Virus record (IMG/VR): IMGVR_UViG_3300021425_000006
DNA: 64,000 bases
Reading direction: 5' to 3' (one strand)
Source: a virus
Below, piece after piece: positions 29,873 to 32,776 of this stretch. Position numbers and translations under genes: made by a program. The stretch's first letter is position 1. Each line of letters begins with the position of its first letter. The notes below the pieces were generated by a model that did no database searches, was not told where the DNA came from, and saw nothing but the letters and a program-made list of their open reading frames with translations.

Positions 29873-31048
29873 ATGTCAGAACTACTAGAAAGTCGCTGGC
29901 AGGAAACCAAAGGCGCACTTCTTGAAGGCTTAAACGGCAACAAGAAAAGCGTGATGGCTGCTACACTTGAGAATACTCGTAAGTATTTGTCAGAGAGTGC
30001 AACAGCTGGTGCAAGTTCCGCCGGTAACGTCGCAACCTTAAATCGTGTGATCCTTCCAGTGATCAGACGTGTAATGCCAACCGTTATTGCTAACGAGTTA
30101 GTTGGTGTTCAACCTATGACTGGACCAGTTGGTCAGATCCACACATTGAGAGTACGTTATGCAGATGCAGTAAACTCAACAAATGGAACAGACACAGCAG
30201 CTGGTGATGAGGCTTTAAGCCCATTCAAGATTGCTGAAGCGTATTCAGGTGCTTTAGATGATAAAGCAGCTGCTACATCAGCGTTAGAAGGCTCAGCTGG
30301 TAACAGACTTAGCATTCAAATCTTGAAGCAAACTGTAGAAGCGAAATCCAGAAAGCTATCAGCTCGCTGGACTTTTGAAGCAGCTCAGGATGCACAATCA
30401 CAGCACGGTATTGATGTTGAAGCAGAAATTATGGCTGCATTAGCACAAGAAATTACTGCTGAGATTGACCAAGAAGTAATTGCTAGCCTTTACAGCCTAG
30501 CAGGATCTGCAGAGTCAGATGTTCAATATGATCAAGCAGGTGTTAGCGGAACAGCTACATTTGTTGGTGATGAACATGCAGCTTTAGCAGTGATGATTAA
30601 CAGAGCAGCTAACAAAATTGCTCAGCGTACACGTCGTGGCGCTGGTAACTTTGCTGTTGTTTCACCACACACTTTAACAGTATTACAAAGTGCTACTACT
30701 TCAGCGTTTGCAAGAACAACTGAAGGTTCTTTTGAAGCACCTACAAATACTAAATTAGTTGGTACATTAAACAATGCAATGAAAGTATATGTTAACACAT
30801 ACGCTTCAGACGCAACTGATGTATTAGTTGGTTATAAAGGTTCAAGTGAATCAGACGCAGCTGCATTCTACTGCCCATACATTCCGTTAATGAGCAGTGG
30901 AGTTGTATTAGACCCAGACACATTCGAACCTGTTGTGAGCTTCATGACACGTTACGGATATGTTGAGTTAAACAACACAGCATCATCTCTTGGTAACGCA
31001 GCTGACTACTTGGCACGTGTAAGCGTAGCTAACGTAAGCTTCAGTTAA
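29873..31048 (+). CDS. gp23: Major capsid protein
   Basis: LPVIRRVMP..IA..LVGVQPMTGPVGQI, VEAKSRKLSARWTFEAAQD, AFYCPYIPL, FMTRYG. Confidence 0.97.
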   Translation: MSELLESRWQETKGALLEGLNGNKKSVMAATLENTRKYLSESATAGASSAGNVATLNRVILPVIRRVMPTVIANELVGVQPMTGPVGQIHTLRVRYADAVNSTNGTDTAAGDEALSPFKIAEAYSGALDDKAAATSALEGSAGNRLSIQILKQTVEAKSRKLSARWTFEAAQDAQSQHGIDVEAEIMAALAQEITAEIDQEVIASLYSLAGSAESDVQYDQAGVSGTATFVGDEHAALAVMINRAANKIAQRTRRGAGNFAVVSPHTLTVLQSATTSAFARTTEGSFEAPTNTKLVGTLNNAMKVYVNTYASDATDVLVGYKGSSESDAAAFYCPYIPLMSSGVVLDPDTFEPVVSFMTRYGYVELNNTASSLGNAADYLARVSVANVSFS

Positions 31049-31189: not shown

Positions 31190-31261
31190 ATGTGGACAAA
31201 ACCTTCATATACAGAAATGCGTTTTGGTTTCGAAGTAACAATGTATGTAATGAACAAGTAA
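31190..31261 (+). CDS. pqqA: Pyrroloquinoline quinone precursor peptide PqqA (23 aa)
   Basis: MWTKPSYTEMRFGFEVTMYVMNK*: MWxKP leader and GFEVTMY core with E-x3-Y; SD AGGAG; late motif TAAATA at 31147-52; own terminator. Confidence 0.93.
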   Translation: MWTKPSYTEMRFGFEVTMYVMNK

Positions 31262-31300: not shown

Positions 31301-31320
31301 AACCCGCTTCGGCGGGTTTT
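31301..31320 (+). terminator. Terminator after pqqA
   Basis: AACCCGC-TTCG-GCGGGTT-TT. Confidence 0.85.
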
Positions 31321-31337
31321 CAATGATAAATATTATT

Positions 31338-31404
31338 AGAGTAGTCCACTTTAGAGACTCGCATAGGTTCATGCGTTAAAAGAATCGTAGATATCCAAAA
31401 GGAG
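31338..31404 (+). promoter_or_regulatory. Structured 5' leader with H-type pseudoknot upstream of YRG peptide
   Basis: S1 CGCAT/ATGCG (31360-64/31371-75); loop GGTTC (31366-70) pairs with GAATC (31382-86); starts at the predicted late TSS. Confidence 0.5.
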
Positions 31405-31411
31405 AAATACG

Positions 31412-31474
31412 ATGACTAAAGAACTAACATTTATATATCGCGGTGTCAAGTATACTAAAACCGTAACAGTATAA
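31412..31474 (+). CDS. 20-aa YRG peptide (DUF4278/Downstream-peptide-like)
   Basis: MTKELTFIYRGVKYTKTVTV*, strong SD AAGGAG; YRGVxY motif. Confidence 0.8.
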   Translation: MTKELTFIYRGVKYTKTVTV

Positions 31475-31511
31475 ACCAGTAGACAGGGACGTCTTTTAAA
31501 TAAATAATTAT

Positions 31512-31558
31512 ACGTTCATCCATAAGGACGGAAGTAGACAATAATGTCGAAGGAACGC
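31512..31558 (+). ncRNA. Glutamine riboswitch class I (glnA RNA motif)
   Basis: P1 CGTTC/GAACG, P2 TCC-ATAA-GGA, GGAAGTA...GAAG E-loop, P3 GACA-ATAA-TGTC; begins 5 nt after TAAATA (31501-06). Confidence 0.88.
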
Positions 31559-31584
31559 ATCTTTTAGAAATAGGAGATGTCGAT

Positions 31585-31749
31585 ATGACTAAACTACAAG
31601 CAATGGCATTTAAGCATGCCTTAAAACAAACCCTTAAACATGATAAGCACCCAAGAGTATTAAATTACAATATGCAAAAGCGTCTTGGACTTATTAGTGA
31701 TGCAAGAAAAGAACATAAAAACTTTTTTGTTCCGGATTATTTAAAATAA
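31585..31749 (+). CDS. 54-aa basic peptide downstream of the glutamine riboswitch
   Basis: MTKLQAMAFKHALKQTLKHDKHPRVLNYNMQKRLGLISDARKEHKNFFVPDYLK*; SD AGGAG; followed by a terminator. Confidence 0.8.
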   Translation: MTKLQAMAFKHALKQTLKHDKHPRVLNYNMQKRLGLISDARKEHKNFFVPDYLK

Positions 31750-32235: not shown

Positions 32236-32320
32236 GTCGATAGTGTGCCGCAAGGCGGACTTATGCTGTTTACCCACAGCGTAGCTCATAGAACGGGCAT
32301 TGGACTACTATTATAGGAGA
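32236..32320 (+). promoter_or_regulatory. Structured multi-stem 5' leader
   Basis: GCC-GCAA-GGC, TATGCTGT/ACAGCGTA and GCTC/GGGC stems enclosed by ATAGT/ACTAT; follows late motif TAAATA (32225-30). Confidence 0.5.
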
Positions 32321-32326
32321 AAAAAA

Positions 32327-32776
32327 ATGGGAAGACCACTTAATAAAAGATTGTTTGGAACGCCAACAGCGGCAGGCAACGAAATCAAAGTAAACTTTCA
32401 TAACGGCACAGCAGTTAAAGAAGGTTATATTGTAAGGCAAAAAGCATCAAAGAAATTTGTATGTGAAGAAATTGAAACAGCAGGTGAATTTACTTGTACA
32501 CTAACAACTGGTAAATTACCAGCGGCATTAGCAGCAGGCGAAATGGCTATTTCATTCAAAATGGATGATGAAGAAACTTACACAGTAAGTAAAATTTCTG
32601 GACGTAAAGCTACATTGTCAGCACCAAGTGCAACAGGCTCAAACGCATATGATGGAAAATCAGTACCATGGAACTTTGCAACATCTACTTCAGATGGCGC
32701 AGCACAAGTTGAAGAAGCTGGTGATGATAACACATTAGTCGGTACTGATGACGACGACTTCACAGAAGACGCATAA
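32327..32776 (+). CDS. Virion structural/hypothetical protein (start corrected to 32327)
   Basis: SD AGGAG precedes ATG 32327 (MGRPLNKRLFG), in frame with the 32300 TTG ORF. Confidence 0.8.
   Translation: MGRPLNKRLFGTPTAAGNEIKVNFHNGTAVKEGYIVRQKASKKFVCEEIETAGEFTCTLTTGKLPAALAAGEMAISFKMDDEETYTVSKISGRKATLSAPSATGSNAYDGKSVPWNFATSTSDGAAQVEEAGDDNTLVGTDDDDFTEDA

Follow-up and report, generated by a model that had tools for sequence, protein, structure and literature searches.

How is translation of a small phage YRG peptide controlled when the RNA ahead of it is not one of the recognized glutamine sensors? To our knowledge, glutamine riboswitches are the only RNA sensors so far known for DUF4278/IF17-like peptides, a family that is poorly understood outside Synechocystis. 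We examined one such locus in a 64,000-nt stretch of viral DNA (hereafter, the window), where a first-pass annotation had described a compact H-type pseudoknot ahead of a YRG peptide and had proposed a possible new riboswitch class or protein-binding operator. This remains the right frame, as the leader is conserved, belongs to no Rfam family, and precedes the YRG peptide family. We estimate a probability of roughly 60% that the leader is a translational switch gating the peptide, in which an effector-stabilized pseudoknot competes with a sequestering hairpin.

Architecture of the leader and its peptide

All features of the leader and its peptide lie on the (+) strand. At the cassette start, TAAATA (31327..31332) is, as read from the sequence, a candidate T4-type late-promoter-like motif; a second copy is found at 31501-31506, and a TAAATA-type motif also occurs ~10 nt 5′ of the first hairpin in many related leaders. 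This first hairpin, P0 (31343..31359), pairs AGUC (31343-46) with GACU (31356-59) around a 9-nt loop and directly abuts S1 (31360..31375), the hairpin of the invariant core, in which CGCAU (31360-64) faces AUGCG (31371-75) across the loop A-GGUUC. Within this loop, A31365 would represent L1, and the 5-mer GGUUC (31366..31370) would form the 5′ strand of S2, which can pair with either a proximal or a distal partner. The A-rich linker L3 (UUAAAA, 31376..31381; consensus U-N-A-A-A/C-A) leads to the proximal partner GAAUC (31382..31386), i.e., the 3′ strand of S2, which forms one G-U pair with the loop and overlaps the 5′ strand of a further helix, P3, by 3 nt. The SD sequence AGGAG (31400-04) begins 13 nt 3′ of S2. 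Our reading of the sequence thus bears out the placement of S1, L1, S2, and L3 in the first-pass annotation, whose small upstream hairpin (AGTC/GACT) corresponds to P0.

The 20-aa YRG peptide (MTKELTFIYRGVKYTKTVTV) is encoded at 31412..31474. Judging from its substitution pattern, the ORF is real and under coding selection: variable sites number 4, 3, and 7 at codon positions 1, 2, and 3, respectively, and the conserved YRGVKY block is kept through many synonymous changes. A Pfam search returned no match for the 20-aa peptide of the window, while 54-aa three-repeat relatives behind the same leader aligned to nearly the whole DUF4278 domain (PF14105) with 24.9, 25.3, and 26.1 bits (cut-off, 25.3). 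Downstream of the ORF, the cassette ends in a weak terminator-like hairpin (AGAC/GUCU followed by UUU; 31481..31497), which was not called by a terminator scan; relatives carry a clearer GGACA..UGUCC hairpin with a U-run at the equivalent position.

The core is nearly invariant and exclusively associated with YRG genes

The pseudoknot 27-mer occurs once in the whole window (0 expected). A 5-nt complement a few bases downstream of the hairpin is nevertheless not rare, arising in 6–11% of per-lineage shuffles, and in a single sequence such as that of the window it is weak evidence by itself. Relatives were collected by pattern scans of IMG/VR and JGI metagenome contigs seeded on the peptide and on the RNA. 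The first scans recovered the core CGCAUAKGUUCAUGCGUUAAAAGA 5′ of small YRG ORFs in at least 45 distinct leaders with strongly diverged flanks, and at least 22 more distinct leaders with informative variants came from two further peptide-seeded scans combined with a covariance model of this initial set. The resulting core, CGCA-U-W-KRUUC-A-UGCG-U-N-AAAA-GA, occurs in at least ~65 distinct leaders on marine viral or metagenome contigs and is nearly invariant, while the P0 loops, linkers, and SD regions have diverged.

Specifically, ~24 bases in S1, its loop, and the linker are almost invariant, many of them in loops or linkers. The variants comprise an A-to-U change of L1, the loops GAUUC, GGUC, and UGUUC, loss of the top pair of S1 (through CGCAC or deletion of the A), and the linkers UGAAAA, UCAAAA(C), and UGAACAA, with L3 otherwise conserved across lineages. 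A covariance model built from the relatives scored the window leader at 80.9 bits. Among the matches listed, a YRG (DUF4278-like) ORF follows every complete RNA-defined copy (82/82), with the SD and the ORF located 30–50 nt 3′ of the motif, and 2 further copies are cut by contig ends. The link to the YRG peptide drawn by the first-pass annotation is thereby confirmed, and so is the conservation among homologs on which its interpretation depended.

Chance complementarity without function, for which the shuffles of the single window sequence leave room, is thus most improbable, being contradicted by the comparative data: the motif is conserved, its gene association is exclusive, and the helices flanking the core covary. 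The leader is almost certainly a functional conserved RNA element and represents a real, apparently undescribed cis-regulatory element and an orphan riboswitch candidate.

The motif has so far been found only in phage and virome DNA. A search of the GTDB representatives (185,579 genomes) with the major form CGCATA-N5-ATGCGTTAAAA, a pattern that leaves out the tail variants (UGAAAA and UCAAAA) and the L1 variants, gave 33 matches, all of them due to chance. In the cultured phages of INPHARED, a collection from which the window's own genome may be absent, the leader was found in no record; a weak match to the YRG coding part was seen in Synechococcus phage S-CBP3 only. The covariance model detected no second copy of the motif in the window or in the loci searched for one, and two candidate copies (L403 and L207) were rejected as chance pattern matches in coding DNA. 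Searching region 31335-31440 against Rfam 15, both at the gathering threshold and at E ≤ 10, assigned no family to the leader; the sole alignment, to freshwater-2 RNA (13.1 bits, E = 5.2), covers the SD region and is driven by the SD itself.

Comparative support for P0, S1, and S2

We counted base pairs in 43 distinct sequences. P0 is a well-supported helix by its covariation, as all four pairs changed on both sides (e.g., AGCU/AGCU, AACC/GGUU, GAUC/GAUC, and GGUC/GACC). Its G-U and U-G pairs are compatible with the (+) strand only, and an antisense reading of the element was rejected because the G-U pairs do not fit the other strand. Pairing between the P0 loop and the A-rich linker was also discarded, as it is not conserved across relatives.

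S1 is perfectly complementary (−3.9 kcal/mol in the window) yet invariant: CGCA and UGCG are identical in 43/43 sequences, and these four pairs display no covariation at all. Three viral scans in which the S1 positions were freed yielded, among the matches listed, only CGCAT/ATGCG and chance matches such as L207. Since S1 never varies, the comparison neither proves nor refutes its pairing. The top U-A pair, lost in 4/43 sequences (the L214 clade and L219), appears to be dispensable.

The comparison lends partial support to S2 with its proximal partner. At pair 1, 32 sequences carry G-C and 8 carry U-A; at pair 2, 38 carry G-U and 4 carry A-U. Pair 3 is broken in 9/43, including a U-C mismatch across the whole UGUUC clade, whose S2 (UGUUC/GACUA) is therefore imperfect; in L012, the partner GACCA leaves two mismatches. 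The A-U at pair 2 results from a G-to-A change in the loop (the L214 clade and L359), and the loop variant GGUC is accompanied by a GACU partner. The covariation that the first-pass annotation had proposed to test in both stems is therefore absent from S1, where nothing varies, and is seen in part in S2, with one compensatory pair (G-C to U-A) and G-U to A-U changes. Its "textbook" H-pseudoknot fares likewise: the geometry is present, but S1 does not covary, S2 is imperfect in two clades, and the loop has a second partner (see below).

Two other features of the core were considered and dropped. A resemblance to a tRNA T-arm (GGUUC…GAAUC) was judged a coincidence, and the mini-ORF AUG-CGU-UAA (Met-Arg-stop) was rejected, its stop codon being replaced by GAA or CAA in several lineages and its AUG being lost in L219. 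In the leaders of L213 (~2757-2850, − strand), L257, L260, and L275, the linker UGAAAA or UGAACAA removes the UAA after AUG-CGU in S1, and the AUG of the S1 3′ strand opens a frame of 31–34 aa that runs in-frame into the YRG peptide (MREKNRRNPIRRYTMTKELVYIYRGVKY...).

The leader travels in a 174-nt cassette

The leader, the YRG ORF, and the weak terminator-like hairpin form an autonomous 174-nt cassette (31333..31506, + strand) with late-promoter-like ATAAATA repeats at its bounds. In another IMG/VR record (G001), the aligned flanks are 100% identical and the 174-nt cassette is absent, and an 11-kb contig (X7) from an independent seawater metagenome run skips the same 174 nt at the same place. 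This presence/absence polymorphism suggests promoter-repeat-mediated shuffling of micro-genes. The neighbors of the cassette vary as well: it follows gp23 in the window and in L010 and L026, and lies beside gp32 in L035, L042, and L046 and beside Hsp20 in L050 and L053; in L011 and L013, it has a sigma-70-type promoter ahead of it and is located close to TerL.

Given a mobile cassette and a perfect, invariant 5-6-5 inverted repeat (CGCAT-N6-ATGCG), we considered that conservation might act on the DNA, with the repeat serving as an operator for a dimeric protein or as a recombination site of the cassette. However, the cassette is bounded by the ATAAATA repeats and not by the inverted repeat, the covariation in the adjacent P0 and P3 is of the RNA type, its G-U pairs fitting the sense strand alone, and conservation extends to the spacer and to a one-sided A-rich tail. 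A DNA operator was rejected on the strength of the cassette ends and of the covariation in the flanking helices, and the DNA-level reading as a whole is very unlikely.

A sequestering hairpin and a second partner for the S1 loop

The first-pass annotation missed a hairpin (31384..31413; MFE, −9.9 kcal/mol) that would sequester the initiation region. Its outer helix, P3, pairs AUCGUA (31384-89) with UACGAU (31408-13), a strand that takes in the first two bases (AU) of the AUG, and an inner anti-SD, UCC (31394-96), pairs with GGA (31401-03) of the SD AGGAG. This architecture is predicted for the great majority of 31 distinct platform sequences and recurs in every clade, despite variation in both P3 (AUUGAA/UUCGAU, UACUUC/GAAGUA, and CGUG/CACG) and the anti-SD (UCC, CCAA, UCCU, CUC, and CC). 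Pairing in the P3 columns reaches 85.7%, compared with ≤41% for slid controls; at one position of this helix, 25 sequences have C-G and 13 have A-U. Sequestration of the SD and AUG by P3 and the anti-SD is thus well supported.

Because the P3 5′ strand shares three bases with the S2 3′ strand, S2 and P3 are mutually exclusive. Riboswitches join a conserved aptamer to an expression platform with mutually exclusive pairings, and the leader shows this arrangement, with S2 overlapping P3 and with the SD and AUG sequestered in all clades. We modeled the switch by blocking the S2 strands in the folding model as a mimic of the pseudoknot. The AUG became more accessible, its mean unpaired probability rising from 0.19 to 0.79, and that of the SD was essentially unchanged (0.28 versus 0.33). 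The modeled pseudoknot would thus open the AUG and not the SD, which counts against the mechanism proposed below.

The loop can also pair at or just past the start codon. In the window, this distal partner is GAACU (31421..31425, + strand), which lies in codons 4–5 (Glu-Leu). A full complement of the loop is found between −12 and +15 of the AUG in 15/15 lineages (4.4 expected), and the proximal partner is fully complementary to the loop in 10/15 (1.1 expected); these lineages are related, with perhaps 6–8 independent clades, and the enrichment statistics overstate independence. The distal sites are GAACU at +9 or +6, G[A/G]ACU at +2, and GAACA at +2 for the UGUUC loop, which is accompanied by AUGAACA. 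In the L214 clade, the loop GAUUC coexists with GAAUU, i.e., the G-to-A change in the loop is matched by a synonymous Leu change from CUA to UUA (G-C to A-U); L359 is the single exception to the match between loop and distal partner. As conserved Glu-Leu or Asn codons coincide with most of the distal sites, the complementarity may partly be a by-product of coding. Given that S2 is imperfect in two clades, that the second complement of the loop is more universal, and that the S2 3′ strand overlaps the hairpin sequestering the SD and AUG, we prefer to view the pseudoknot as one state of a switch rather than as a fixed structure.

A model for translational switching

The model that we propose builds on the established conservation, exclusive gene association, covariation of P0 and P3, mutually exclusive pairings, and mobility of the cassette. 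The leader would constitute the 5′ part of a self-contained phage micro-gene and control, in cis, translation of the YRG (DUF4278/IF17-like) peptide. The RNA would begin with two stacked hairpins, P0 and then the invariant S1 with its A-GGUUC loop. By default, translation would be off, with P3 and the anti-SD stem burying the SD and the first two bases of the AUG; in this state, the S1 loop could also pair with the GAAC-type site at or just past the start codon. In the alternative state, a compact H-type pseudoknot, the loop would pair with GAAUC directly after the A-rich linker, which would draw it off the initiation region, remove 3 of the 6 P3 pairs, and free the AUG. That translation is gated through these competing folds is quite probable.

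An effector would stabilize the pseudoknot and turn translation on; which way the leader switches, whether an effector exists, and what it would be are points that we infer. We postulate it because S2, at approximately −2 to −5 kcal/mol with either partner, is much weaker than the sequestering platform (−9.9 kcal/mol in the window), and because the ~24 almost invariant bases occupy mostly unpaired or tertiary positions. Alternatively, the leader might work with no effector, with P0 and S1 protecting the 5′ end and the sequestering hairpin setting a low or kinetically timed level of translation, for example, if the proximal pseudoknot formed first on the nascent RNA and later refolded to the closed form. 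The position of P0 at the predicted 5′ end, directly past the late-promoter motif, would suit such a role, and a folding pathway governed by kinetics alone could make use of both loop partners. However, stability elements normally tolerate change, as P0 does, and the invariance of S1, the loop, and the linker would be left unexplained; we regard an effector-less leader as quite improbable and retain the effector-stabilized switch as the main reading.

Candidate effectors and relation to known RNAs

If an effector exists, what could it be? Since the cassette travels alone among different neighbors, a co-transferred protein partner is unlikely, and the remaining candidates are a metabolite, a universal host factor, and the peptide itself. 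The latter two would make the leader a translational operator, whose invariant hairpin and A-rich tail would be bound by the basic YRG peptide or by a host factor found in many marine hosts; binding would stabilize either the pseudoknot or the pairing of the loop with the start-codon region, as in the autoregulation of T4 gene 32 or E. coli rpsO (S15). Each of these two operators serves autoregulation by one specific protein, the product of the downstream gene. The leader resembles them in that a hairpin loop can pair at or after the start codon, which would enclose the SD and AUG in a pseudoknot loop in the manner of the rpsO operator, and gene 32 provides a T4-type precedent; in contrast, the product here is a peptide of 20–54 aa. 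The joint invariance of stem and loop is as typical of protein sites as of aptamers, and the YRG peptides are rich in Lys and Arg. However, the cassette moves between unrelated phage backbones with no conserved partner gene, so that the factor would have to be universal or the peptide itself, and the same peptides are placed under metabolite riboswitches elsewhere. We therefore consider a protein- or peptide-binding operator unlikely, whereas a small molecule as the effector of the switch has a chance somewhat short of even.

A small metabolite reporting nitrogen status is our leading guess for the trigger, because the same peptides sit behind glnA-type and Gln-II riboswitches in other phages. 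Peptides of the FIYRGVKYTK type, for example, follow glnA-type riboswitches in other phage contigs (L005 and L007-L009). Among the matches listed, the distinct leaders 5′ of YRGVKY sites in viral contigs comprise at least 57 glnA-like, at least 25 Gln-II-like, and at least 33 with the new motif, a split that follows a rough sequence-pattern rule, with Gln-II confirmed by Rfam on two leaders. The statement of the first-pass annotation that YRG peptides usually follow glutamine riboswitches (Gln-I/Gln-II) agrees with these leaders. When one regulon is found behind a different leader, this typically points to an additional riboswitch class, although for glutamine itself this argument is circumstantial. 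The leaders of L317 (~1740-1850, − strand) and similar contigs resemble a Gln-II aptamer over its 3′ two-thirds (GGACGCAUGA...P2...UAUGGAACGGG), have no obvious CGUUCA-P1 5′ part, and may be truncated or variant Gln-II elements.

The Gln-II riboswitch is pseudoknot-based and has been proposed to release a ribosome binding site that is otherwise occluded (PMC6698751, PMC6212724); its pocket involves the PK helix CGUUC/GAACG, with C1:G40 and a G18>G2:C39 triple (PMC6698751). Gln-II (Downstream-peptide motif, RF01704) and the new motif both precede DUF4278/YRG peptides, including in phage contigs, and share the recurrent strings of a hairpin with CGCA, GUUCA, and a GAAC-type partner. The order differs, being hairpin-CGCA-GUUCA here and CGUUCA-hairpin-CGCA in Gln-II (Rfam consensus, CGUUCA-P1-CGCA...P2 loop CAUGGAACGG), and the new motif has no P2. 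Furthermore, the glutamine-contacting pairs C1:G40 and G2:C39 are replaced by G:C/U:A and G-U/A-U when the loop pairs with its proximal partner, and the stem next to GUUCA is invariant here, in contrast to the variable P1 of Gln-II. The loop helix is K-R-U-U-C, and its GUUC/GAAC part is shared with Gln-II only with the distal partner. The RF01704 covariance model (33-bit cut-off) did not match 31335-31440 even at E ≤ 10, whereas true phage Gln-II leaders score 42.8–59 bits. With a hairpin, CGCA, GUUCA, and UGCG in this order and a GAAY partner, the new motif can be drawn as a rearranged Gln-II core, with S1 taking the place of P1 and L1 that of the groove strand. Membership in Gln-II is contradicted by the lack of a covariance-model match, by the loss of the glutamine-contacting pairs, and by the invariance of S1 where P1 varies, and we treat this drawing as a lead and not a finding.

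The glnA RNA (RF01739) controls the same peptide family in other phages, but its three-way junction, E-loop (ACGGAAGUA), and CGUUC/GAACG P1 are absent here apart from GUUCA. The RF01739 model (35-bit cut-off), which includes the ACGGAAGUA E-loop, did not match the leader, while it scored a nearby true copy at 57.2 bits. The first-pass annotation was thus right that the leader is not a recognized glutamine aptamer, as neither RF01704 nor RF01739 matches it, and that it lacks the CGUUC/GAACG P1, given the K-R-U-U-C loop helix and the absence of glnA three-way junction features other than GUUCA.

Among compact H-type riboswitches, preQ1-I, SAM-II/V, and guanidine-III consist of a short stem whose loop pairs with a strand following an A-rich tail, close to the SD, and exert translational control. 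The leader shares the short stem, A-rich tail, and SD proximity with these RNAs and differs in having no sequence or covariance-model similarity to them, no L2, a partner strand that overlaps a separate sequestering hairpin instead of the SD, and a second loop partner in the coding region. None of the Rfam 15 models, including preQ1-I/II/III, SAM-II/V, guanidine-III, and NAD-II, matched the leader; the comparison to preQ1-I, SAM-II/V, and Gln-II that the first-pass annotation had proposed thus assigns it to none of these.

That the motif constitutes a third riboswitch class, for glutamine or another nitrogen-status metabolite, is a tentative proposal that is likelier wrong than right, and glutamine in particular is a rather unlikely effector. 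Our searches of the literature turned up neither a third class of glutamine riboswitches nor a permuted form. If the proposal were true, the motif would be a rearranged, minimized relative of Gln-II, in which the hairpin-CGCA part serves as the groove strand and GUUCA as the pseudoknot strand, S1 replaces P1, the loop is opened, and the ends are closed; a single loop would then alternate between two pairings, one with a proximal decoy and one around the start codon of a gene for an IF17-like peptide. Such a relationship by rearrangement would illustrate aptamer evolution, and the motif would show how phages rewire host nitrogen sensing through portable 174-nt promoter-leader-peptide cassettes. 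As a third conserved leader type, it accounts for a large share of the YRG leaders in viral contigs (33 of the 115 distinct leaders roughly classified among the matches listed). The orphan candidate is an RNA of <60 nt and directly testable, and the two-partner design of its loop is a testable mechanistic idea.

Genomic setting of the cassette in the window

The window is part of a T4-type marine myophage. Its major head protein gene (29873-31048) has large T4-like phages as its closest cultured relatives, with 71.5% amino acid identity to the protein of Vibrio phage 2.275.O. More broadly, the head protein is 67–71.5% identical to those of ~350-kb T4-like jumbo phages of Vibrio, Yersinia, Erwinia, and Serratia and is not closest to those of known OM43 or SAR11 myophages, which makes the host of the phage uncertain.

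Three micro-genes lie 3′ of the head gene, encoding PqqA, the 20-aa YRG peptide, and a 54-aa ORF. The PqqA precursor peptide gene (31190-31261; Pfam PF08042, 46 bits) has its own terminator (31302-31320), and its DNA is 77–88% identical to unannotated or hypothetical stretches of the Methylophilales (OM43) phages Venkman, MEP301, MEP401/402, and P19250A. Metatranscriptome contigs pile up on the PqqA stretch with 90–99% identity and probably derive from pqqA of other organisms. The three metatranscriptome runs were uninformative for the YRG cassette, with no contig there, and pqqA-like transcripts of other organisms account for their depth at 31201-31260.

The third micro-gene follows a bona fide glnA-type glutamine riboswitch (31511-31561; RF01739, 57.2 bits), located 125 nt downstream of the YRG leader; together, riboswitch and ORF span 31511-31749, and the basic 54-aa product belongs to no Pfam family. 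In three metatranscriptome studies, RNA contigs start at 31513, 31520, and 31527, just past the TAAATA at 31501-06, a weak hint of a transcript start there. Further downstream, a freshwater-2 RNA (RF02980, 69.7 bits) is found at 32244-32329, upstream of and overlapping the start of an ORF at ~32300-32776.
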